A DNA stretch of 64,000 bases from Nitrospirota bacterium. GTDB lineage: Bacteria; Nitrospirota; Thermodesulfovibrionia; UBA6902. Within the stretch, counting starts at the first letter, position 1. Each line of letters begins with the position of its first letter. The position numbers were made by a program, and so were the translations under genes. Under the pieces are notes generated by a model that did not search any database, was not told the DNA's origin, and saw only the letters and a program-made list of their open reading frames with translations. Below are positions 891-46,133 of the stretch, piece by piece. The stretch spans positions 4,319 through 68,318 of the forward strand of contig JACRPZ010000017.1 of the NCBI GenBank assembly GCA_016222905.1, read 5' to 3'.

Positions 891-1177
891 ACAATACCGA
901 ATGCAAATCCTTCCTGTTGTCTTGGGCGAGATGTTGAATGACCCTGATCTGATCAAAGTCGCAAAGAGTTATGCAGGCAATGCTTCAAATAAAAAAATTG
1001 ATATAGCAGGATTGAAGAAAGCATCTGACAAAAAATAAACAACTTAATTATAAAACGTGGAGACGTGGCTCTGAATGCCTTTCAAGTTAATGCGGAATAT
1101 AGACCCCATCTATTACACAAGAACGGAGCTATCAGACCGCTTACGCATGGACATGAAAAAGAGCTGATGATGGCAAA

Positions 1178-2932
1178 TTAGGCTATCGTCCAACACTTGT
1201 TTATTTCTGCAGCAAACTTCGGCCACTGACTCGAAACATAAGGAAACTTCTCTTTGTTTTTAAAATCAATCTTAAGGGCAGAAAGCTTTTTTTGGTAAAA
1301 CCCTATTTCCTTAACACCTTGGTAAACTTCCAATGACATACCAAAGCTTTTTATGAACGCAACAATAGAAGTAACTGTCAATAACTTGCTTGTACCATCT
1401 GTAACCCAATCATCTTTAAAATTACTCTGAACTGATATAAAAAACTTACAAATTGTATCAGCACAAAAAGATACATATTTATTCAGAAGTTCTTCAGCGA
1501 TATTATCTTTCCCTTCCTGTTTCTGTAGTAAATTTTTGTCTTGATTGTGCCAATACTTAAAAAGCGTTTCTTTTGATTCGTCAATTTCGACAAGCTGTTG
1601 CAGTCCATATTTTATAATTGTTGGCGTTTTAATGCCCTTATTGTCAAGCTCTGAAAGTAAAAATAGATTGAGAAATGGCGAACGAGTATTCATCTTTTGG
1701 ATTACACTTGTAGATATTCCTATTGGAGAAAAAGGGTCTTGCAGGGACTGAATGTGTTGTAGAATTTGCGTATTAACTTTTTTCTGTTTGCTGTTTATTT
1801 CCAGAAATAGCTGGCTCTCAAATTTCCTCTTCTCCGACTCGGTAAACATCCCTTTCTGATAGTATAATCCCGTAATAAATAGGTGTCTTTTATTCCGAAG
1901 GTCAGCGATTATTCTCTCTTCTTGATCATCAGGACCTTCGTAGTGACCAAACACTCTATGCTGTCCATCAATTATACCAATTGAGTTGCTTTTGTAAGGA
2001 ATTTTGATTTCTATATTAGATGTTACGTCGTCGATTGCTTTAGGATCGATAGGTTCACTTTCCAAATCCTTCTCGCCTTTTAAATAAAATTTAGCCTCTT
2101 TCGGCAAACTAACAATAATATTATCAATAAATGTCCTTTTCTCCCGTGATAGAAATTCACGTATGCTAACTATTTTACTTCTTTCAATCAGTCTTTGATA
2201 ATAGTATCCTGTATTCTGATCCCAATTCTCTTTTCGAAAAACGTACGCACAATCTAGCAACTCCTTTGCTGTCATGACAAAAGATACAAGAGACACACCT
2301 GAAGGCATCCCACTGACATCTTCAGGAAATATTACTGCACTATATATGTGTTCAGGGTAGCTTCCCTTTGTGTTTCCTATTTGTCTAAAATCGACCCCAA
2401 TAAATTTATAAAACTCATTTCTTGCTGAATATCTAATGCTATCTGCTACTTTTAGGAAATACTTCAGTATCCTATAATCTATATACTTGAATTCGCCATA
2501 AAGAATTCGCTTTTCTTCTTCTATAGGTTGTTCGGTGAAATAGATGTAGAATATTTTATAGCGTGCATTAGAATAATTATCGAAGCGAGCAAATTTGTCT
2601 TTCCCTATGTTTTTAATCCAGCTTAGGAAATTTTCTCTATCAGTCGAAAGCTTCTCGAAAAATTCATACTTATTTCGTAAATGATCTGTCGCATTAGTCT
2701 TCCCAATTGTTTCTTCACAAATCAGAATAATGTTTTTAAATAAAAAAACACTATCAATTTCACTTTCTCTGCCATCAAATCTTACTTTTTTCCCTTCCGT
2801 ACGAATGTATTCAAACCCCATACGTTTAAACATTTCAAGGATGGCTTTATGAAACTTAATTTGGTGTTTACGTTGTGGAGTTAAAGGAACTTTCTTTTTT
2901 CTCTTTCTTTTTTTCATTTTCCGAGTAGCCAT
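1178..2932 (-). CDS. DGQHR-domain protein (DndB/DpdB-like, ParB/Srx fold) with a long N-terminal extension and a polybasic N-terminus
   Basis: 584 aa. Exact motif IGIIDGQHRVFGH at about residue 323. N-terminus MATRKMKKRKRKKKVPL. AT-rich codon usage. Lies 9 bp downstream of the MTase gene on the same strand. Confidence 0.7.
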   Translation of the reverse strand: MATRKMKKRKRKKKVPLTPQRKHQIKFHKAILEMFKRMGFEYIRTEGKKVRFDGRESEIDSVFLFKNIILICEETIGKTNATDHLRNKYEFFEKLSTDRENFLSWIKNIGKDKFARFDNYSNARYKIFYIYFTEQPIEEEKRILYGEFKYIDYRILKYFLKVADSIRYSARNEFYKFIGVDFRQIGNTKGSYPEHIYSAVIFPEDVSGMPSGVSLVSFVMTAKELLDCAYVFRKENWDQNTGYYYQRLIERSKIVSIREFLSREKRTFIDNIIVSLPKEAKFYLKGEKDLESEPIDPKAIDDVTSNIEIKIPYKSNSIGIIDGQHRVFGHYEGPDDQEERIIADLRNKRHLFITGLYYQKGMFTESEKRKFESQLFLEINSKQKKVNTQILQHIQSLQDPFSPIGISTSVIQKMNTRSPFLNLFLLSELDNKGIKTPTIIKYGLQQLVEIDESKETLFKYWHNQDKNLLQKQEGKDNIAEELLNKYVSFCADTICKFFISVQSNFKDDWVTDGTSKLLTVTSIVAFIKSFGMSLEVYQGVKEIGFYQKKLSALKIDFKNKEKFPYVSSQWPKFAAEINKCWTIA

Positions 2933-2941
2933 AGTTCTGAT

Positions 2942-4195
2942 TTAATCTCCACCAACTTTTATTGGAATATCAGAATACATAAACTCAAACTTCGTCTCAT
3001 TTTTAAGAACATCTACCATTTTGCATGAAGAAGTATAAGAGAAAAATCTATCGAATTTATATTTGTAAGACTTGGCTTTATTTAATTTCTGAGCGATTTC
3101 GGAATCTTTCTTTATAGTTATAGTTGGATTAATTTTAGATTGCTTGATCAAATCACGCAATTCTTTATTGCCTAAATCTATCAATGGCATCTGCCCGTTT
3201 TGTAATATAATGACTTCAAGGTCGTTATTAGCTTTGTCCTTTACATAATATAAAAAAGAATGTTTGTTAACCTTATTCAAATGCTCACAAATATTACTTG
3301 CAACTTTTAATTTCCGCAGTTTTTTGTTGGTTTTTCTGAAATTGTCAAAGAGCAACTTAGCATCTTCTAATTCTTTAACACGCCTTTGCCAGTATCTTTC
3401 TGCACCTATCAAAACTTCAGTTTCAAATCGCTCTTTGTAAGACCTATTTACATCTAAGCCTACAGAATTTCGATGCATTTTGCTTGCAATTGCTAACACG
3501 GAACCTGATCCTGTAAAAGGATCAAGAATCCAATCATTTTCATCACTACAAAGAGAAATTATTTTTTCAACAAGTGAAAATGGGAAAGGACATAGATGAT
3601 TTTGTTTGCTATCTCCCCAACCTCTGATGGGTGTAGTGAAATTCCAAACATTTGATGGCGCTTTGCCATTTGGATTGTAACGTTCAGGATAAGTCTTCCA
3701 CCATTTTTTCAGATCAAGAATTTCACGAACTCTATCAACTTTAAACTTGAAGCTATCTCCTTTAGTGAAGAACAGAATATACTCATGCTGATTTTTAAAT
3801 TTACCTTTGTGATTCCAAGGTAAATTTTTGTCTTTGTCCCAAATAATTATATCTTGTAAAATCCAGGTTTTCTTTGAATTATCCTTGAGCCTATTTACTA
3901 TATCAAACGGGAAAAGTTTAACCTCTTTGTTTTTTTTAAAAGTATCTACTACCAACCAAAATGTTGCATCTGTTGTAGAAAGATCATGGCAATCCTGAAA
4001 TATTGAACATAGAACATCTAAGTAATCGTTATAGCTTTTCTGCCCATAACCAACTTGCTGTCTGTTATTGTCATAATTAAGTAAATCAAAGTATGGCGGG
4101 GATGAAATAATCAATTGAGGCGCAGGGATTTTCTTAATCTTAATGGTTTTTTTTACATCTTTTGCATTGGCAATAATATAACGTTGTTGAATCAT
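2942..4195 (-). CDS. Beta-class DNA methyltransferase (SPPY motif IV before FxGxG motif I; probably N4-cytosine or N6-adenine)
   Basis: 417 aa. IISSPPYFDL (motif IV) precedes DPFTGSGS (motif I), the beta-class order. A C-terminal extension of about 150 aa follows. AT-rich islet. Confidence 0.85.
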   Translation of the reverse strand: MIQQRYIIANAKDVKKTIKIKKIPAPQLIISSPPYFDLLNYDNNRQQVGYGQKSYNDYLDVLCSIFQDCHDLSTTDATFWLVVDTFKKNKEVKLFPFDIVNRLKDNSKKTWILQDIIIWDKDKNLPWNHKGKFKNQHEYILFFTKGDSFKFKVDRVREILDLKKWWKTYPERYNPNGKAPSNVWNFTTPIRGWGDSKQNHLCPFPFSLVEKIISLCSDENDWILDPFTGSGSVLAIASKMHRNSVGLDVNRSYKERFETEVLIGAERYWQRRVKELEDAKLLFDNFRKTNKKLRKLKVASNICEHLNKVNKHSFLYYVKDKANNDLEVIILQNGQMPLIDLGNKELRDLIKQSKINPTITIKKDSEIAQKLNKAKSYKYKFDRFFSYTSSCKMVDVLKNETKFEFMYSDIPIKVGGD

Positions 4196-4623
4196 ATTTT
4201 ATAGTTTAGAGAAGGCAAGTGAACTGCCAAATTATATATTCAGCAACAAAGATTTAGCAAGCAAAAATAAGGAAGTATGTCAGAGCAAAATAGTGGGTGC
4301 TCTCGGGAAGGTATAGCATTTTGCGATACCGCCCAGTCCCGAATAAAATTAATTAATGATAATACTTATACCTGTTAAAGACAAGGATTTTTTCTTCTGT
4401 CTCAAAGTGGATAATCAGTTTTACCGCCCCGGCTCATTCCCCACAAATTCAAAGAAAACGACTTGAGGCTTTGTCAGTGATATATAAATCTGTCCAATAC
4501 CCCCTAATGTGGGCATCCCTTTTGGGGTATTAACAATAAAAATAAAAGTTGATATCGTTAAATCGTCAAAAAGGAACTATTTCTTGTTCCCATATGCTGC
4601 AAAAGAAAGGGGGTGAATGTGTA

Positions 4624-5082
4624 ATGAAATCAAGGGTCCTTATAACCATTCTGTCGATACTTACTTTCCTGATGTCGTCAGCAGTTGTGCATGCGGGAGG
4701 CGCCACCCGGGTTGCGGAAGCCATCTGGGCAAACGGTAATATCTATGACACGATTCTGACTCCGGCCACTTTTGTGGCCCCTCCGTTGCAGTCAACCGAC
4801 ATCATCTATAGCTTTATGTTAAGCGGTCTCGAAGGGCAGAGGTCTGTTGCGGAAAGCGCTCCCGGTGACCAAGACTATAACGGTGGTCGATGGAATGTAC
4901 AGATGGTTGTCTTTACTCCACAGGGGATCGCGGTCCATGATCCCGATGGTGACGGTATCGTGAACTTCGAGCTGACAACAGCAGAAATGGTACTTGAGCA
5001 CGAAGCGTTGGGGCATCTGACCATCAGTGCCGCTAATTTCTACTTCGAGTGTCCGTTGCTCCCTCGTCGCGGTAACCGGTAG
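4624..5082 (+). CDS. Secreted hypothetical protein
   Basis: The internal start MKSRVLITILSILTFLMSSAVVHAGG has a signal peptide and is preceded by an AAGGGGG RBS. The longer ORF from 4549 lacks an RBS. Confidence 0.5.
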   Translation: MKSRVLITILSILTFLMSSAVVHAGGATRVAEAIWANGNIYDTILTPATFVAPPLQSTDIIYSFMLSGLEGQRSVAESAPGDQDYNGGRWNVQMVVFTPQGIAVHDPDGDGIVNFELTTAEMVLEHEALGHLTISAANFYFECPLLPRRGNR

Positions 5083-6618: not shown

Positions 6619-9006
6619 ATGGACGAACAGACCCTCCGCGTTCTTGAATTCGATAAGATACTCAGGATGGCTGCCGGCTTTGCGGTGACGGTCCCAGGCA
6701 GCGAGCTTGTCAGGAAAACAGCGCCGCTGAAGACCGCCGGCTATGCAAGGCAACGGATAAACCTCATTTCAGAGTGCAGGAGATTCGTCTCCGAAGGAAA
6801 GCATTTCGGGATTGAGCATTTTGACGATCTCTCATCATTTTTCCGAAGGGTAAGACCGGCTGATTCCGTGCTCATCCCCATGGATCTGAGATCATTCCTG
6901 CCGATCCTCTATTCCGCTTTAAACTTAAGAATGCTGGGCGAAGATTCGGAATATCAGGGCATAGGCGCTATCGCGTCTACACTCTCAACCCATCCGGAGA
7001 TAATGAAGGCGATTGAGCGCTCTATAGACTGGGACGGAGAGATCAGTGACAGCGCTAGCCCTGAGCTCTCTTCCATAAGACGGGCGATCCGGTCATGTGA
7101 AACCAAGATAAAAACTCTCCTTGAAGGGATTCTGAAACAGGAGGACCTCCAGCAGCACCTTCAGGACTTCTATCTTGCCGAACGTAACAACCGATGGGTC
7201 GTCCCCGTAAAGACAGACTCCAAAGGCAGCGTGCCCGGGATTGTCCATGACATCTCAAATACGGGAGAGACGGTCTATGTTGAGCCTTACGCGATCCAGC
7301 ACCTTGGAAATGAGCTCGAATCCCACAGGGCGGAAGAGAAGCTCGAGGAGTATAGGATACTGAGGAGTCTCTGCTCACTCATAAGAGAACACCTCAAAGC
7401 AATTGAAGATGATTATCGTATTGTCGCTGAGATCGACGCTCTTCAGGCGATTGCAGGATTTTCCGACCAGATGGGCATGTCCGCTCCTGAAATTAATGAA
7501 GAGGGATACGTGCGCATCATTCACGGACGGCACCCGCTTTTGTGGAAGACACTCAGGAGGGAGAAACGTGAAAACGACCTCGTCCCGCTCGACCTGGAAT
7601 TGGGGAGGGGACATTCCTGCATGGTCATTACCGGTTCGAATGCGGGCGGGAAGACAGTCGCTCTTAAGACGATCGGCGTGCTCTGTCTCATGGCCCTTTG
7701 CGGTATGCATACGCCCTCGGATTCCGGTACGACATTCCCGTTCCTTAAGCGCGTCTTTGCCGACATCGGGGACGACCAGTCCATAGAGCAAAACCTATCG
7801 ACCTTCTCTGCCCACATCAGGCGTATTTCGGATATCGTAAAGCGGAGCGGAAGCGGCACTATGATCATTATCGATGAGCTGGGAACAGGTACATCCCCTG
7901 AAGAGGGCGGCGCTCTCTCCTGCGCCATCCTGCGAAAGATCAGGGCACTCGGCGCCATATCGGCCGTATCCACCCATCTCGGCACCCTCAAGGTATTTGC
8001 CCATTCGGAACCCGGCATGATAAACAGCGCCATGGAGATGGCGGCGGTAGTTGTAAGCGGCAAACCGACACATAAACCTACATATAAACTGGTAGTCGGT
8101 GAACCGGGAACCTCTCATGCCTTTGAGATAGCCGGTTTGCTCGGACTGCCTGATGAGATTATTAAAGAGGCACGGGCCTTTATTACTGAAGAAGACGCGG
8201 CTGTCGAATCGCTCATTTCAGAGCTGAAGAAGAGGACGGTGGAATTAAACATGAGACTGAAAGAGGTGGAAACGATGAGGTCAGAGGCTGAACATCTACG
8301 GCTGTCCATGGCGCAAGAACTCTCACGGCTCAAGATCCTGGAGAAAGAGACTCACGCTGAAGCCTTGAAGGAGGCGGAGGAGTTTTTGCAGAAGACAAAG
8401 AGAGAGGCGAGGGATATCGTCGATGCGATGAAGCGGGCCAAACTTGAGGAGGCGCAAGAGATGGTTAAAGGGCTTGATAAGATAAGCGATGAAGTCGCGA
8501 CCGCCAGCAGGCAATATCTCCCTGATAAGAAGAGACTCACATATGTGCGCACAGGACAGCATGTCTTCGTTCATATTCTCGGCAAAACAGGCGTGGTCCG
8601 GACTGTCAACGAGAAGTCCAAAAGATGCCAGGTGCTCGTTGAAGGCAGAGAGATCGCGGTTCCATTTAAAGAGCTTTCTGAAGTTGAACCTGACATCACT
8701 GCCAGCGAGAAGTCTGATGACACAGGCAAAGAAAGGCTGTCTCTTTCCAAGCCCGAGCTCTTGCATCTTCCGACCGAACTGAACCTTATCGGCCAGCGTG
8801 TAGACCCCTCTCTCTCAAAAATAGAACGCTTCCTTAATGACGCCTCAATGGCAGGGGCGGCGCAGGTAAAGATAATTCACGGATACGGGACCGGCATCCT
8901 TTCCAGAGCTGTAAGGGATTACCTGAAAGACCACCCGCTGGTTGAAAGTTTCAGAAAAGGCAATGAAGAAGAAGGCGGAAATGCGGTCACAATAGTCTTG
9001 CTGTAG
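6619..9006 (+). CDS. mutS2: Endonuclease MutS2 (MutS family with a C-terminal Smr domain)
   Basis: 795 aa. Walker A ITGSNAGGKTVALKT and DELGTGT. C-terminal Smr domain (LIGQRVDPSL...IIHGYGTGILSRAV). Confidence 0.9.
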   Translation: MDEQTLRVLEFDKILRMAAGFAVTVPGSELVRKTAPLKTAGYARQRINLISECRRFVSEGKHFGIEHFDDLSSFFRRVRPADSVLIPMDLRSFLPILYSALNLRMLGEDSEYQGIGAIASTLSTHPEIMKAIERSIDWDGEISDSASPELSSIRRAIRSCETKIKTLLEGILKQEDLQQHLQDFYLAERNNRWVVPVKTDSKGSVPGIVHDISNTGETVYVEPYAIQHLGNELESHRAEEKLEEYRILRSLCSLIREHLKAIEDDYRIVAEIDALQAIAGFSDQMGMSAPEINEEGYVRIIHGRHPLLWKTLRREKRENDLVPLDLELGRGHSCMVITGSNAGGKTVALKTIGVLCLMALCGMHTPSDSGTTFPFLKRVFADIGDDQSIEQNLSTFSAHIRRISDIVKRSGSGTMIIIDELGTGTSPEEGGALSCAILRKIRALGAISAVSTHLGTLKVFAHSEPGMINSAMEMAAVVVSGKPTHKPTYKLVVGEPGTSHAFEIAGLLGLPDEIIKEARAFITEEDAAVESLISELKKRTVELNMRLKEVETMRSEAEHLRLSMAQELSRLKILEKETHAEALKEAEEFLQKTKREARDIVDAMKRAKLEEAQEMVKGLDKISDEVATASRQYLPDKKRLTYVRTGQHVFVHILGKTGVVRTVNEKSKRCQVLVEGREIAVPFKELSEVEPDITASEKSDDTGKERLSLSKPELLHLPTELNLIGQRVDPSLSKIERFLNDASMAGAAQVKIIHGYGTGILSRAVRDYLKDHPLVESFRKGNEEEGGNAVTIVLL

Positions 9007-35437: not shown

Positions 35438-35542
35438 TAGTTTGGCAGGTTGGATTGAACGGAGAGAAACCCAACAAGGCCGTTGGGCTACGCAGCGGCG
35501 ACTGTTACGCGGATCGTTGTGTATAAAAGAGAGGAATATAGA

Positions 35543-36004: not shown

Positions 36005-36562
36005 ATGAAAAACGAAAAACAAACCTGTTCATGGCTGACCGGAGACCCGCTTCTCATGAAATATCATGACAATGAATGGGGAGTTCCTCTGCACAATGAC
36101 AGGAAGCTGTTTGAGTTTCTCGTCCTTGAAGGTTTTCAGGCAGGACTGAGTTGGCTCAGTGTCCTGAGAAAAAGGGTAAATTTCCGGAAGGCGTTTGATG
36201 GTTTTGATTTCAATAAAGTCGCACGATATGATAAGCGAAAAACAAATTCCCTCCTGAAAGACAGCGGGATCATCCGCAACAGGTTAAAGATCGAAGGCGC
36301 TGTTGCAAATGCAAAGGCATTTATAGAAGTAAGAAAAGAGTTCGGGACATTCGATAAATACATCTGGGGCTTTACCGAAGGCAAGCCGCTCAACAACGGG
36401 TTTCGGTCTCTCAAAGAGCTTCCCGCAAGGACAGAACTATCAGACCTCATCAGTAAAGATTTAAAGAAAAGGGGGTTCAAATTTGTGGGATCAACCATTG
36501 TGTATGCCCATATGCAGGCAACCGGTATGGTTGTAATTGAAAAGTTTGGAAATATTCATTAA
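36005..36562 (+). CDS. tag: DNA-3-methyladenine glycosylase I
   Basis: CSWLTGDPLLMKYHDNEWGVPLHNDRKLFEFLVLEGFQAGLSW is a Tag signature. Confidence 0.9.
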   Translation: MKNEKQTCSWLTGDPLLMKYHDNEWGVPLHNDRKLFEFLVLEGFQAGLSWLSVLRKRVNFRKAFDGFDFNKVARYDKRKTNSLLKDSGIIRNRLKIEGAVANAKAFIEVRKEFGTFDKYIWGFTEGKPLNNGFRSLKELPARTELSDLISKDLKKRGFKFVGSTIVYAHMQATGMVVIEKFGNIH

Positions 36563-36656
36563 CTAATTTAGAAAGCAGATAACAAATAAAGCCAGCTGAT
36601 ACTTCGACAAGCACAACAACGCTGATTTCAGGCGTTATACTGAATATCTCGCGTCT

Positions 36657-38294: not shown

Positions 38295-38554
38295 GCTGAT
38301 CTCTCCTTGAGGTTATGTCGCTGCTTTTTAATTATTATACTTAACAAACCCTTTCTCCTCATATCTTTAATTGTATCAATATTAGAAAGTCTTTTTTATT
38401 CCCCTGCTTAGAAGTGCCTACTTCTGACTTTGCAAAGGGGGGTACATGGGGTTATTTGGAATATCATAATTTTACTGAAATAAGCAATAAAATGTGTTAA
38501 TGTTTTTGAAGAGATAAAGGAAAGTTGATAGTTACTACGTTAGGCATTTAAACT

Positions 38555-39157
38555 ATGGATGCTCATAAAGAAGTTCAAGAAGCCATAATTAATTTAGAAG
38601 CAAAATTAAATATTCGAAAAGGATTTTTTGACACTCTCTTAAAAGAAGATGACTGGTCTTTTGTTATTAAATCTCATGCGTTGTTAGAGTCAGTAATTTC
38701 AAGTTTGCTTACAAACCATTTTGATCATGAATGCCTTATTGATATATTCTCGAGATTAGAACTGGGAAACAAAAAGTATGGTAAAATTGCATTCATTAAA
38801 GCACTTGATATGCTTAATAGTGATGAACGACGATTTATTTCTGCTTTTTCTGAGTTGCGCAATTTCTTAATACACAATGTATCTAATGTTGATTTTAATT
38901 TTACTAACTATATAACTACGCTTGATTCAAACCAAAAGAAAGAATTTATCAATTCATATGGTTATTGTTACTTAACAGAAGATGATAAGGGAAAACCAAA
39001 AGTAGATCATCGTGAGAAGATTTTATCCGACCCCAAAAAAACTATTTGGTTAAGTCTTAAATATATACTTGCCATTATTAGTCTTACTATAGATACAATA
39101 AGATTGAGAATACAAACTGAAATGTTTAAGAAAAAAACTGCTGAACTACTAAAATAA
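38555..39157 (+). CDS. Hypothetical alpha-helical protein with an Rx4H (ELRNFLIHN) motif; candidate HEPN-like domain
   Basis: 200 aa. AT-rich islet. RNFLIH fits the HEPN Rx4-6H consensus. Possible C-terminal TM (IWLSLKYILAIISLTI). Confidence 0.45.
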   Translation: MDAHKEVQEAIINLEAKLNIRKGFFDTLLKEDDWSFVIKSHALLESVISSLLTNHFDHECLIDIFSRLELGNKKYGKIAFIKALDMLNSDERRFISAFSELRNFLIHNVSNVDFNFTNYITTLDSNQKKEFINSYGYCYLTEDDKGKPKVDHREKILSDPKKTIWLSLKYILAIISLTIDTIRLRIQTEMFKKKTAELLK

Positions 39158-39272
39158 CTGCATCAGATTTTATGAACTGTTGCCCAAATGATAAACACCT
39201 TTCGACAAGCCACACAGTTTACTTACATACAAAAGCCGATTTTCAGTATTAAATCTTTTAGGTTGATTTTAC

Positions 39273-40367
39273 TTGAACTTTCCTTTAACGGGTGTTATTT
39301 TTATTGCAGGAGCGGATAGCGTGAGCGAACAAAAAAATACAACTCAAAAATGCTATAAGGTTGTTTGTTTTCTTTTATGCCTCTTTGCTTTTTCTTGTGA
39401 GGAAAGCCCTCAGAAGATAATAGAAAAGGCGAAAAAATCAGTTGTTACTATAAAAACGCCAACTGGTTCAGGGTCTGGGTTTGTTGCCTCTGCTGACGGC
39501 TTGATTATCACAAATAATCACGTAGTCGAAAACTATGAAACAGTAGAAATTCATTTTCCGGATGGTAGAACTACTGTGGCATCTCCAATAAAAAAAGGAC
39601 TGTCTGTTCTTGATGTTGCATATCTTAAAGTTGACGGTTCAAAGTTCGATTACTTTCCCGTAAATTTTAACTGCAATACAGGGGATGAGGTATATGCTAT
39701 AGGCGCGCCGTTAGGTTTACCAGAGTCTGTCAGCAAGGGGATAATAAGCAATTGTGACCGCACGCTCAAGGGAGTCAAATTTATCCAGACAGATGCGGCT
39801 GTAAATGCAGGAAACAGTGGTGGTCCTTTAATAAACAAGAAGGGCGAGGTAGTTGGCCTTCTTACTTTTAAGATATCTGCCGAGGGAGTTGAGGGCCTTA
39901 ACTTTGCATTATCCCCCGCAGTAGTGTGGGACTTTTATGAAAACAAATTGACCAATCTTGAGGAGGCATTAAAAAAGGAAGTCATTGCGCAAAATAAGGA
40001 AGTTACAGCGCAAAACCCTGCTAATAGAAGCACTTCGGGCGAGCCTTATTGGGTTGTAGTTTATGAAAATGATGATGCTACACATTTATATGATGTTAAT
40101 AATATGAATTTTCTAAACGAGAATATTTTTTACGCTTGGTTTAAGAGTAAATATAAGACACCACAACTAACAACAACAGCCAATAAATTGCAAACGGAAA
40201 GTATGTCCCTATTTAGATATGATTGCACAGAGAGAAGCTTTTTGTGGTTGGAATATGAAGAGGTTTATACTGATGGTAGTACGGGCAAAATGAAGTCGCA
40301 TCTTGATAAAATATATGCTGAACCTGGCTCGGTGCAAATGCTGCTCATGAATCAGGTTTGTAAGTGA
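39273..40367 (+). CDS. Lipoprotein with an N-terminal trypsin-like serine protease (S1) domain and a C-terminal domain of unknown function
   Basis: Catalytic triad context: ITNNHVV (His), TDAAVNAGNSGGPLINKKGEVVGL (Ser). Lipobox LFAFSC. AT-rich. The true start may be the GTG at about 39321. Confidence 0.65.
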   Translation: MNFPLTGVIFIAGADSVSEQKNTTQKCYKVVCFLLCLFAFSCEESPQKIIEKAKKSVVTIKTPTGSGSGFVASADGLIITNNHVVENYETVEIHFPDGRTTVASPIKKGLSVLDVAYLKVDGSKFDYFPVNFNCNTGDEVYAIGAPLGLPESVSKGIISNCDRTLKGVKFIQTDAAVNAGNSGGPLINKKGEVVGLLTFKISAEGVEGLNFALSPAVVWDFYENKLTNLEEALKKEVIAQNKEVTAQNPANRSTSGEPYWVVVYENDDATHLYDVNNMNFLNENIFYAWFKSKYKTPQLTTTANKLQTESMSLFRYDCTERSFLWLEYEEVYTDGSTGKMKSHLDKIYAEPGSVQMLLMNQVCK

Positions 40368-40424
40368 TGAAACCAAAAGTTACTATTGCCTGCATCATAA
40401 TAAAATAGAAAAGTTTTTCTAATC

Positions 40425-40446
40425 TGCGGATTATCTCTTCTTTTCT
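40425..40446 (+). repeat. Direct repeat of the tkt 3' end (gcggattatctcttcttttcta); second copy at 41513..41534
   Basis: 22/22 identical. Flanks a 1.07 kb segment carrying the killer/antidote pair. Confidence 0.8.
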
Positions 40447-40554
40447 ATATCTGCCCTTGCGGCATCTACCCCTTGCAAGAATTTACACAAGAGTCTTGAC
40501 ACTACCAATGCCTGATAGCTGGTTTAATTTTATTAATAGTAAAATAAAAACAGA

Positions 40555-40726: not shown

Positions 40727-41038
40727 TTATGCATAAGCCTGTTTCTGTGCCTTTACAGTAAGCGCCAGACCCATGGCGCTAAGCAGCGTCATCAGGCTTT
40801 TTATTTCAGGGTTGCCGCGCTTTGAAAGCATGCGATAAAGATTCTCCCTGTTTAGATGCGCCTTTTCCGCTATTGCCGATATTCCGCCTTGAGCTTTAGC
40901 AATGTTTCTGAGAGCGAGCAGGAACAATTCACGGTCTCCTTCTTCAATTGCAGCATTTAGATATGCAGCAGCCTCTTTAGGTTTTTTCAGACTTTCAATA
41001 AGGTCTTCCTGATAACTTTTTTTTGGTTTTGCGGCCAT
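40727..41038 (-). CDS. Addiction-module antidote protein (HigA-like HTH antitoxin)
   Basis: 103 aa. LNAAIEEGDRELFLLALRNIAKAQGGISAIAEKAHLNRENLYRMLS is typical of this family. Confidence 0.75.
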   Translation of the reverse strand: MAAKPKKSYQEDLIESLKKPKEAAAYLNAAIEEGDRELFLLALRNIAKAQGGISAIAEKAHLNRENLYRMLSKRGNPEIKSLMTLLSAMGLALTVKAQKQAYA

Positions 41039-41043
41039 TTATA

Positions 41044-41379
41044 TCACCTCCGTTTACGTTTAAATGTTTTCCAGTATTCCTTTGCATGAGCAATATCTTT
41101 ACTTTGTGACGCCTTATCTCCTCCAAGCAGGAGCAAAACAATTGCGTCACCGGCAAATGCATAATACACGCGGTATCCGGGACCAAAATCTATTTTCAAT
41201 TCGTGCATGCCTTCACCAACAGACCTGGCATGCCCAAAGTTTCCGAGACTTATTCGGTCAAGAGCAATGCGAATCTTTGCGCGGGTATGAATATCTTTAA
41301 GTCTCTCAAGCCAGTCCTTAAACGGAATCTTGCCGGTTTCAGTAATGAAATATTCAAGCGTGAAATGGCATGGTTTCAT
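41044..41379 (-). CDS. Addiction-module killer protein (RelE/HigB-like toxin)
   Basis: 111 aa. FKDWLERLKD...RIALDRISLGNFGHARSVGEGMHELKIDFGPGYRVYYAFAGDAIVLLLLGGDK is the family signature. 5 bp upstream of the antidote gene. Confidence 0.8.
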   Translation of the reverse strand: MKPCHFTLEYFITETGKIPFKDWLERLKDIHTRAKIRIALDRISLGNFGHARSVGEGMHELKIDFGPGYRVYYAFAGDAIVLLLLGGDKASQSKDIAHAKEYWKTFKRKRR

Positions 41380-41518
41380 CGAGCTTATAATAGCTTATAA
41401 GCTACATATTGTCAAGAGAACGAGAATGGTAAATAAATCTATTTTGTAAAATCAGCAAGAAAAAAAGATGACAAGGGTAATGCCTTAAAAGTTCATTTAA
41501 CATTAAGAATTAAGCGGA

Positions 41519-43579
41519 TTATCTCTTCTTTTCTAACTCTTCCTTGGCAGCAGCGACTATCCTCTCAACAGTAAAGCCGAAATTCTTTTGAAGATCTTTA
41601 AAGGGCGCTGAGGCTCCGAACCTGTGCATGCCGATGATCTGCCTGTTGCCGACATACCGTTCCCATCCAAATGTTGATGCCTCTTCAACCGCAACACGGG
41701 CAATGACAGAAGGTGGAAGGACGCTGTCGCGGTAGACCTGATCTTGCTCTTCAAATAGCTCCCATGAAGGCATGCTTACAATACGAGCATTTATTCCTTC
41801 TCTCTTGAGCTCTTCAAAGGCCTCGATACATAGCGAGACTTCGCTTCCTGTTGCGATAAGTATAATATCTGGCTTATTATTCTCTGCGTCAGCCAGCACA
41901 TACGCCCCCTTAGCGAGCCCCGAAGCAGGCGCATATTTTGCGCGGTCGAGCGTGGGTATGGATTGTCTTGACAGCATAAGGGCTGCGGGCCTGTCACGGA
42001 ACTGCATGATCACTCTCCACGCTTCAACAACTTCATTGGCATCTGCAGGTCGCAATGTAATGAGGCCGGGCATTGCCCGTAATGAGGCAAGATGTTCTAT
42101 CGGCTGATGTGTGGGGCCGTCTTCGCCGAGGCTGATTGAGTCATGAGTAAAGATATAGATAACCGGAAGCTCCATCAGCGCGCCCAGCCGTATCGCAGGC
42201 CGCGCGTAATCGCTGAAGATGAGGAATGTCGCACCATAAGGGCGGATATTGGATAAAGCCATGCCGTTAAGTATGCCTGCCATAGAATGCTCACGAACTC
42301 CGAAGTGCATATTACGTCCTCCCGGATTTTCCGCATTGAGATCCCCGGTGCCTTCAAAAGTAAGCAGGGTTTTTGTTGAGGGGGCAAGGTCAGCCGAACC
42401 GCCTATAAGCCATGGGACATTTTTGGCTATAGCGTTAAGCACCTTACCTGAAGATACGCGGGTGGCTGTGCCTTTTGCGTCAGCCGGAAAGACCGGCAGG
42501 TCTTTATCCCACCCTTCGGGTAACTGCCTGCGCTGCATCATATATAATTGATCGGTGAGATCAGGATATTTTCTGCTGTACTCATCAAACTTTTCCGACC
42601 ATGCTTTGTAAAGCTCTGCGCCTCGTTTGCCCAAGCCTGAACGAAGATGCTCTCGCACTTCATCGGGAACGAGAAACTTTGCGTCCTCAGGCCAGCCGAA
42701 ATTCCGCTTGGCCGATCTTACCTCATCTTCTCCAAGCGGCTCGCCGTGCGCTGACGCGGTGTCCTGTTTATTCGGCGCGCCGAATGCGATATGACTTTTG
42801 ACAATTATTATTGTAGGCCTGTCGTTAGTTTTTTTAAATAATGTTAATGCATCCGCAATGCCTGTCAGATCATTGGCATCATTAACATCTATCACGTTCC
42901 AATGGTAGCCTTTAAAGCGTGTTGCAACATCTTCGCTGAATGCCAGAGCAGTGCCGCCTTCTATCGTGATCTTATTATCATCATATATCCAGCAGAGATT
43001 TGAGAGTTTAAGATGTCCGGCGATGGATGCGGCCTCTCCTGAAACCCCTTCCATCATATCACCGTCGCTGCAAAGCGCATAAACATCATGATCAAAGAGC
43101 TCAAAGCCGGGGCGGTTGAAGCGCGCTGCCATCCATCTTCCGGCAATCGCCATACCCACGCTGTTTGCCGCGCCTTGTCCTAATGGGCCTGTGGTTGTCT
43201 CAACCCCTGTTGCCAATCCATGTTCAGGATGTCCGGGGGTTTTGCTGTGAAGCTGGCGGAAGTTTTTAATATCATCAAGCTCGACCGAGAGCTTATCAAG
43301 TATCTTGCCGTCATCATCCGCTCTCTTCACATTGTAGAGATGGAGTATGGAATAAAGAAGCATTGAGGCGTGCCCCATGGAGAGTACAAAACGGTCGCGG
43401 TTTAGCCATAGCGGATTTTCAGGGTCAAAGCGGAGAAAATGCTGCCATAGAGTATATGCCACAGGAGCCATCGCCATTGGCGTGCCCGGATGGCCTGAGT
43501 TCGCCTGCTGAACAGCATCCATAGAGAGGGTGCGGATGGTGTTGATGCAGAGAATGTCAAGCCGGTTCTTGTCTGTCAT
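41519..43579 (-). CDS. tkt: Transketolase
   Basis: 686 aa. ANSGHPGTPMAMAP, the GDG TPP motif CSDGDMMEGVS, HDSISLGEDGPTHQPIE. Confidence 0.95.
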   Translation of the reverse strand: MTDKNRLDILCINTIRTLSMDAVQQANSGHPGTPMAMAPVAYTLWQHFLRFDPENPLWLNRDRFVLSMGHASMLLYSILHLYNVKRADDDGKILDKLSVELDDIKNFRQLHSKTPGHPEHGLATGVETTTGPLGQGAANSVGMAIAGRWMAARFNRPGFELFDHDVYALCSDGDMMEGVSGEAASIAGHLKLSNLCWIYDDNKITIEGGTALAFSEDVATRFKGYHWNVIDVNDANDLTGIADALTLFKKTNDRPTIIIVKSHIAFGAPNKQDTASAHGEPLGEDEVRSAKRNFGWPEDAKFLVPDEVREHLRSGLGKRGAELYKAWSEKFDEYSRKYPDLTDQLYMMQRRQLPEGWDKDLPVFPADAKGTATRVSSGKVLNAIAKNVPWLIGGSADLAPSTKTLLTFEGTGDLNAENPGGRNMHFGVREHSMAGILNGMALSNIRPYGATFLIFSDYARPAIRLGALMELPVIYIFTHDSISLGEDGPTHQPIEHLASLRAMPGLITLRPADANEVVEAWRVIMQFRDRPAALMLSRQSIPTLDRAKYAPASGLAKGAYVLADAENNKPDIILIATGSEVSLCIEAFEELKREGINARIVSMPSWELFEEQDQVYRDSVLPPSVIARVAVEEASTFGWERYVGNRQIIGMHRFGASAPFKDLQKNFGFTVERIVAAAKEELEKKR

Positions 43580-45452: not shown

Positions 45453-45665
45453 TATCTCTCCTTAATTCTTTATCATGGTTTATTGTTTAAACTCTCTGAC
45501 ACCGTCCATAAATTATACCAGCAACTGCATGATGTTGCCAGAATCAGGTGGACAAGCAAGGGTTATGTATCAAAAATTGTTTGACACGCCATGCGGCATA
45601 AGATAAAATCCTCTTAATTGGGAAAAAAGCGAAAAATAACTGCTAGGAGGTAATAAGAAAATAAA

Positions 45666-46133
45666 ATGAAATTCATTATCCAACTGCTGAAAATAGGCGC
45701 TTTTTTTTCATTGCTCTTTTTTTGTCTCATAGGTTTTATTACAATTTCACCTCTTTTGCTCACTAATGAAGTTCTGAAGGTTCAAAATAAACACATTTCG
45801 GAAAACTCATACGTTATTGAGGGGGTAGATGATAATGGTGGCAAAACAATATCGCACTATTCAGAAAGTTTTTTCAACAAAGCACAAATTGGCGATACGA
45901 TCAGATATAATGCTACTTATCAACTGCTAGTTAAAGATGGACATATAGAAAGCATTTATGTACATAAGGACATTTGGCTTATGTTAGCCTTTATGGCGTT
46001 CTCGCTATTTCCAGTTCTCATTTTCTTCCCGAATAGCAGAATATTAAGGCATCGATTTTCTTATTGGCTCATCGGAGCAAGTGAATTAACGAATATCTTT
46101 TTCTTGGCCTCATCCCTCTTTCCCTCTTGTTGA
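45666..46133 (+). CDS. Hypothetical membrane protein (AT-rich)
   Basis: 155 aa. N-terminal and C-terminal TM helices. GGAGG RBS. AT-rich composition. Confidence 0.45.
   Translation: MKFIIQLLKIGAFFSLLFFCLIGFITISPLLLTNEVLKVQNKHISENSYVIEGVDDNGGKTISHYSESFFNKAQIGDTIRYNATYQLLVKDGHIESIYVHKDIWLMLAFMAFSLFPVLIFFPNSRILRHRFSYWLIGASELTNIFFLASSLFPSC

Follow-up and report, generated by a model that had tools for sequence, protein, structure and literature searches.

Two adjacent genes on the forward strand of a Nitrospirota (Nitrospirae) metagenome-assembled genome raise the question of what each encodes and whether they act together. The DNA analysed here, referred to below as the window, is a stretch of 64,000 nucleotides (nt) from contig JACRPZ010000017.1 of assembly GCA_016222905.1, and the genes are two of its open reading frames (ORFs), ORF-A and ORF-B. 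ORF-A (38555-39157, +) encodes a 200-amino acid (aa) protein with the sequence ELRNFLIHN, as described in a first-pass annotation, and ORF-B (39321-40367, +) encodes a lipoprotein serine protease. That annotation had read the first protein as HEPN-like and had put forward the two genes as a candidate abortive-infection or stress module. Our analysis upheld the HEPN assignment and went against the module. The ORF-A family is a sizeable, hitherto unnamed HEPN family of a known kind, that of solo, integron-borne HEPN genes; ORF-B encodes an exported lipoprotein protease that is ordinary in kind though unusual in construction; and the two genes are probably unrelated, independently acquired and adjacent by chance. 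Both proteins are 100% identical to NCBI entries (‘hypothetical protein’ for ORF-A and ‘serine protease’ for ORF-B), and the gene order recurs in three independent sequencing runs.

ORF-A has 152 detectable homologues, spread over many phyla, and none of these proteins carries a Pfam domain. A profile search against 1.84 billion cluster representatives placed 1,946 of them in the family at E ≤ 1e-3 (820 of these at E ≤ 1e-30), and the family amounts to about 1,900 clusters at 50% identity. The best 150 of the 1,946 representatives are 158-283 aa long and each matched the profile in one single stretch, as expected of single-domain proteins. Members were found in Nitrospirota, Planctomycetota, Chloroflexota, Acidobacteriota, Bacteroidota, Cyanobacteria and other phyla. 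A tblastn search of phage genomes with ORF-A matched nothing, and a fold search against BFVD gave nothing meaningful. Plasmid matches, on Pseudomonas aeruginosa megaplasmids and a Pseudoalteromonas replicon, are solo genes annotated as ‘hypothetical protein’. We observed on the P. aeruginosa plasmid pSE5369-NR (locus L088, 7745-8407) that the relative adjoins an opposite-strand gene for a ‘HEPN domain-containing protein’ and another for a 1,446-aa hypothetical protein, and on the Pseudoalteromonas replicon (locus L089, 7623-8651) that the relative is followed by an IS110-family transposase.

The HEPN assignment was built from the conserved residues, the predicted structure and profile comparisons. 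R102, N103 and H107 (codons R102-N103-F-L-I-H107 at 38858-38875, +; an Rx4H motif of the HEPN catalytic type) were invariant both in an alignment of 57 homologues and in one of 127 diverse representatives of 50%-identity clusters, and by this conservation RNxxxH is more than a chance match. D33 and W34 were likewise invariant, and E45, K39 and H41 were conserved at ≥90%. The AlphaFold model of ORF-A (predicted local distance difference test score (pLDDT) 95.8, predicted template modelling score 0.89) is nearly all helical apart from a short hairpin. RNxxxH is predicted to lie at the C-terminal end of helix 89-106 with H107 just beyond it, and E45 to lie in the long helix 33-56; a motif at a helix end together with an acidic residue on an N-terminal helix is the arrangement of HEPN domains (Anantharaman et al. 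2013, PMC3710099). When the model was searched with Foldseek against the PDB, the six best matches were all MtlR/YggD proteins (E 0.04-0.17, probability 0.92-0.99, template modelling (TM) score 0.37-0.52), and MtlR has been assigned to the HEPN superfamily (Anantharaman et al. 2013, PMC3710099). The top PDB profile matches were the HEPN toxins 7ae9 and 6m6w, non-significant at E 0.4-0.5 and aligned exactly on LRNxxVH, and the wider 127-sequence profile did not improve the PDB matches. In profile searches, sub-threshold Pfam matches of family members fell mainly on HEPN_Swt1 (13 of 57), HepT-like, MtlR, HEPN_Apea and HEPN_RiboL-PSP, and no curated profile was matched significantly. An hhalign comparison of the family profile with two single HEPN proteins from the fetched loci was negative; single sequences are weak templates.

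Several of these results count against a HEPN fold. ORF-A had no match in Pfam, NCBIfam or PADLOC (Pfam and NCBIfam at E up to 1), no curated HEPN model was significant on it, the best match of any family member, to HEPN_Swt1 at 0.0039, was sub-threshold, and the fold match to MtlR is modest at its TM scores. Each line of evidence in favour is weak, and all of them agree; we conclude that ORF-A very probably has the HEPN fold.

The genomic setting of the family was assessed at 80 loci with ORF-A relatives, each taken with 6 kb of flank. In most genomes the relatives are lower in G+C than their flanks; the mean difference is 8.3 GC points, and it is >5 points in 44 of 76 loci. Comparison of each locus with itself revealed repeats of 60-120 nt that hug the gene at cassette-like spacing, and these flanking repeats are canonical attC sites, the recombination sites of the form RYYYAAC...GTTRRRY (for example GCCTAACAATTCGTTCAAGCCGA...TCGGCTTAACTCAGGCGTTAGGC). 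A first covariance model was derived from 33 attC sites, using their conserved ends (69% of cells paired, compared with 25-52% in slid controls), and a second model (R2) from 80 real attC matches. Two other procedures were dropped: a finder combining regular expressions with folding was too noisy because it called palindromes on both strands, and RNAalifold found no structure in full-length attC sites, as their variable centres had been scrambled by MAFFT.

With model R2, 104 attC sites were found in 826 kb at E ≤ 0.1, and 101 of the 104 lie on the strand of the HEPN gene. At least one attC is present in 27 of 77 loci, and an attC abuts the ORF-A relative in 23 of 77 (21 downstream, 14 upstream and 12 on both sides); these counts and E-values are approximate, since the models were trained on sites of the same loci (several loci lay outside the training set) and the calibration was short, which tells against the cassette reading. 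The strand bias, the canonical consensus and the presence of integrases are independent support for the calls. Where an attC lies downstream, the TAA stop codon of the gene often falls inside its R'' box. Loci flanked on both sides have space for the HEPN ORF alone between the sites (L052, 5959 to 6553; L032, 5970 to 6609; L069, 1381 to 2008). L052 carries a complete integron, with an integrase gene (TIGR02249, E 5e-142; 3616-4632, −) upstream of at least 5 attC sites; the HEPN gene occupies the third cassette. An IntI-like gene in L028 (4756-5699, −), which tblastn recovered in two segments and which may be frameshifted, is directly upstream of the HEPN gene, so that the latter is the first cassette there. 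The ORF-A family is thus a recurrent one-gene integron cassette (attC, gene, attC) in other bacteria, and such cassettes leave no room for a partner gene.

Two descriptions in the literature are close to this arrangement. An integron-cassette HEPN family represented by PDB entry 3jrt has been proposed to be a stress or dormancy RNase and is gammaproteobacterial (Anantharaman et al. 2013, PMC3710099). It resembles the ORF-A family in consisting of small solo HEPN proteins encoded in integron gene cassettes, and differs in distribution, as the ORF-A family spans Nitrospirota to Cyanobacteria and others. Entry 3jrt was absent from PDB profile searches with ORF-A (E up to 10) and from the 50 Foldseek matches listed, and the two families appear to be separate. 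Esos is a one-gene anti-phage integron cassette of the V. cholerae superintegron whose sole recognisable feature is a HEPN-like domain and whose growth-arrest-type anti-phage activity was shown experimentally (Darracq et al. 2024, bioRxiv 10.1101/2024.07.02.601686). Its likeness to the ORF-A family, as a one-gene cassette with a HEPN domain, is one of description; unlike Esos, none of the 80 ORF-A-related loci kept is from V. cholerae.

HEPN proteins with an intact Rx4H motif are dimeric, metal-independent endoribonucleases (summarised in PMC3710099). By analogy, ORF-A would most likely dimerise and form such a site from R102, N103 and H107, with E45 on the neighbouring helix, and would work unaided, as a toxin that arrests growth or as an effector of defence, once it is expressed or triggered. 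Taken singly, the gene may plausibly function in abortive infection or stress. The wider proposal, that the family comprises phylum-spanning, one-gene cassette HEPN RNases that would carry out autonomous anti-phage growth arrest, ‘Esos-like’ and far more widespread than Vibrio, with self-control contained within a single 200-aa protein, we regard as possible but doubtful. Weighing on the other side, no activity, toxicity or phage phenotype is on record for the ORF-A family, nor is there a PADLOC match; the reading calls for some way of keeping a solo RNase harmless; and part of the MtlR family, the nearest in fold, is regarded as lacking catalytic activity (Anantharaman et al. 2013, PMC3710099).

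This last point leads to the main rival explanation, in which ORF-A is a non-catalytic MtlR/YggD-like regulator that binds protein or RNA and is not an RNase toxin. The MtlR/YggD proteins (PF05068; 6kcr, 3c8g and 3brj) are the best structural match to ORF-A, among them the MtlR-HPr complex 6kcr; they share its size (~170-200 aa) and its all-helical, single-domain build; two homologues of ORF-A are labelled ‘MltR family’ by JGI; and many MtlR members are held to be inactive (Anantharaman et al.). MtlR is mainly gammaproteobacterial and retains the Rx4-6H motif in some proteins (Anantharaman et al. 2013, PMC3710099). In the 127 diverse sequences of the ORF-A family, however, RNxxxH and the acidic residue are (nearly) invariant, unlike in the degenerate MtlR subset. 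PF05068 was not matched at threshold by ORF-A, and only 2 of 57 relatives match it, at E 0.036. The ORF-A relatives occur in many phyla and often as integron cassettes, not in mannitol or other phosphotransferase system (PTS) operons, and no sugar or PTS operon surrounds them; a mobile, AT-rich, one-gene cassette is more in keeping with an accessory toxin or defence gene than with a host regulator. We consider a regulatory, non-catalytic ORF-A unlikely.

A second explanation keeps the toxin and adds an antitoxin: ORF-A would be one half of a toxin-antitoxin (TA) pair whose other half is an unrecognised small ORF or RNA alongside. HEPN toxins are mostly paired with a cognate antitoxin (MNT, for example), integron arrays often contain TA modules, and a Gp49/HI1420-type pair lies nearby at 40727-41379. 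The HepT/HEPN-MNT toxins (6m6w and 7ae9) are also the proteins that gave the best, non-significant PDB sequence matches, with LRNxxVH(D/N) aligned; ORF-A differs from them in being longer, with extra N- and C-terminal helices. All-against-all clustering of the neighbouring ORFs, which covered ORFs of at least 70 aa and did not systematically cover RNAs, so that a smaller antitoxin would fall outside it, yielded no conserved neighbour family of ORF-A relatives; the largest family occurred in 6 loci, 3.5-5 kb away. Neither an MNT gene nor another antitoxin gene adjoins the relatives, unlike in HEPN-MNT systems. The 77 closest same-strand neighbours are a mixture that includes dehydrogenases, hydrolases, DUF4238, FRG, PIN_8, a TIR effector, AAA_15 and a BglII endonuclease. 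The complete cassettes of L052, L032 and L069 hold only the HEPN ORF between their attC sites, and DNA homology between the window and the locus of a 68%-identical Nitrospirota homologue (L001) is confined to the coding region of ORF-A, with flanking DNA not conserved. A dedicated antitoxin beside ORF-A is distinctly unlikely on this evidence.

For the copy in the window the cassette history is harder to read. The G+C content of ORF-A, 28.5%, is the lowest of any 600-nt stretch in the window (mean 46.1%, standard deviation 6.5%), and that of ORF-B is 39.0%, about one standard deviation under the mean; the first-pass description of both genes as strongly AT-rich thus applies to ORF-A, and ORF-B is only mildly low. 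Further AT-rich stretches at 1150-3900 and 45600-46000 of the window have a GC fraction of 0.30-0.34, similar to that of the ORF-A islet. Upstream of ORF-A, a CGTTAGGC box (38537-38544, +), read from the sequence as similar to the core of an attC R' box (GTTRRRY), may be what is left of the 5' boundary of a cassette. The box stops 10 nt short of the ATG, at the spacing seen in real cassettes, and the ORF-A stop codon falls within AAATAAC. Of 76 loci, 12 have a strict GTTRRRY no more than 47 nt upstream of the start, where 2.5 would be expected (P 7e-6). When loci with a detected upstream attC are set aside, 7 of 62 have one (P 0.004), and these seven include the window and L001, whose 68%-identical homologue has GTTAGGT 12 nt before its ATG. 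Some distance away, a single canonical attC-like site at 36577-36640 (+), 1.9 kb upstream of ORF-A (AGATAACAAAT...TCAGGCGTTATAC; R2 30.3 bits, E 1.8e-5 over the 64-kb window), directly follows a methyladenine glycosylase (tag) gene (36005-36562). We also observed a minimal R''/R' pair, ACCCAACAAGGCCGTTGGGC, at 35469-35488 (E 0.27), between a GYD-domain gene and a cupin gene. A decayed cassette cluster may lie at 35.1-36.6 kb.

Other results speak against this history. With both covariance models and filters off, no attC was found beside ORF-A and ORF-B (38.3-40.7 kb); the 117 nt after ORF-A (39152-39268) fold no better than shuffles (z +1.06); and the window contains no integron integrase. Since no attC flanks the gene, the argument rests on a short box that was noticed post hoc and carries modest statistics. 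That the window copy of ORF-A is a stranded ex-cassette is, in our judgement, a tentative reading with somewhat less than an even chance of being right.

The loss of the attC and integron context, together with the fact that promoter-like matches upstream are weak only, would also suit a third explanation, in which the window copy is a functionless stranded remnant, unexpressed and no longer under selection. Yet the ORF is intact and full length, has all the invariant residues of the family, and stands in the same arrangement in three independent sequencing runs, which makes loss of function quite improbable.

Whether ORF-A, as a solo HEPN gene, has any tie to the protease beside it was decided by co-occurrence. 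No S1C protease was found within 6 kb of an ORF-A relative in any of the 80 loci, either by phmmer on called ORFs or by a protease-domain hidden Markov model on six-frame translations, and none of the three loci of protease homologues (L081-L083, which include 79%- and 55%-identical homologues) has an ORF-A relative. The gene for the 68%-identical Nitrospirota HEPN homologue is flanked by dapA and TA fragments, and no protease is encoded there. DNA homology between the window and L081 runs from about 39266 to about 40430 (+) by sliding identity, a block that holds only ORF-B and stops short of ORF-A. No signal peptide or other export signal is present in ORF-A, whereas ORF-B is an exported lipoprotein; the two products are therefore in different compartments. 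We take the two genes to be independent neighbours because of the absent co-occurrence, the separate homology blocks and the different compartments. The two-gene abortive-infection or stress module, in which for example the protease would sense or activate the RNase, is extremely improbable: for all that the genes are adjacent on one strand with a gap of 115-163 bp, no terminator-like site between them and GC contents both below that of the flanks, the two families do not co-occur in other genomes (an outcome that the first-pass annotation had itself named as refuting), the nearest homologues of each lack the partner, the homology blocks break at ~39266 between the genes, one product is cytoplasmic and the other a secreted lipoprotein, and the one-gene cassettes show that ORF-A relatives travel alone.

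ORF-B stands on its own as a modular exported protein. Its mechanical reading (39273-40367, +) begins at a TTG and gives the 364 aa of the first-pass annotation. That ORF exists as listed, and the true start is probably the GTG at 39321, which we prefer because it has an AGGAG 8 nt upstream and because several homologues have their start near this position. The protein has a signal peptide and a lipobox, LFAFSC (39381-39398, +), whose Cys is conserved in 15 homologues, as is the hydrophobic stretch before it; the mature protein would begin with this residue, Cys42, in lipidated form. The S1 protease core also proved to be as first described: residues 67-196 (39471-39860, +) match Trypsin_2 (Pfam E 4.2e-30), and the triad H83, D114 and S182 is invariant among homologues. 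ORF-B resembles HtrA, DegP and DegS in this S1C core with its His-Asp-Ser triad, which matches NCBIfam Do/HtrA models over the protease part only (TIGR02037, E 4.5e-42, 144.5 bits). It differs from HtrA/DegP (Do) in falling far under the family cut-off of 416.2 bits, in having no PDZ domain by Pfam and NCBIfam scans, and in carrying an Adhesin_E domain at the C-terminus instead.

This C-terminal domain, initially left unassigned, can now be named. Scanned alone, residues 260-364 (40050-40364, +; beta-rich, with two conserved Cys) matched PF16747 Adhesin_E over the whole profile (1-109) at E 8.1e-6 and 26.5 bits (cut-off 23.7). The model of the domain has a pLDDT of 91.3, and Foldseek matched it to H. 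influenzae Protein E (3zh5/6/7 and 6gus) and to TdeM of P. aeruginosa (9m3l) with probability 1.0 and TM 0.60-0.70. Like ORF-B, Protein E (PF16747) is a lipoprotein, and the two match in both sequence and fold; in ORF-B the domain is fused to a protease and not free-standing, and it is hypervariable. The best structural match, 9m3l (TdeM), was deposited as ‘ADP-ribosylated endolytic muramidase’, a title which hints that Protein-E-fold domains may act on peptidoglycan. Among the nine closest ORF-B homologues (including P0122-P0129), mean pairwise identity is 94% in the protease domain versus 44% in the Protein-E-like domain (minimum 18%), and in a sliding comparison of the window with L081, DNA identity falls from 92-100% (39300-39960) to 62-88% (39960-40376), with no homology beyond the block. 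Judged from these alignments, the Protein-E-like domain is fast-evolving or recombining and varies fast between strains; no template repeat of the diversity-generating retroelement type was found for it within the window. ORF-B most probably serves as an envelope-tethered exported protease whose Protein-E-like domain would be used for binding, tethering or targeting.

Two observations concern the surroundings of the protease genes. At L082, the locus of the protease homologue P0131, several small same-strand ORFs with no Pfam matches accompany a good attC match (8291-8379; 39 bits, E 1.3e-6), which is 1.1 kb downstream of the protease; the protease gene may border a cassette array there. In the window, a 44-nt direct repeat (40426-40469 and 41514-41557, 82% identical) has its left copy beginning where the homology of the ORF-B block to L081 stops and its second copy forming the 3' end of a transketolase gene (tkt). 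The repeats bracket the Gp49-like toxin / HI1420-type antidote pair at 40727-41379, and the TA module therefore looks like an insertion into the 3' end of tkt.

These results remove a false lead, as a HEPN-protease “system” does not exist. They leave a separate, modest lead on envelope or surface diversification, in the hypervariability of a Protein-E-like domain that is joined to an otherwise conserved lipoprotein protease of Nitrospirota. For the ORF-A family, the attC-flanked copies are naturally delimited constructs, ready for testing. If its members do act in defence or growth arrest as solo proteins, they would add one more family, from outside Vibrio, to the integron “defence biobank”, and would offer a minimal model of the silencing and triggering of a solo HEPN RNase.

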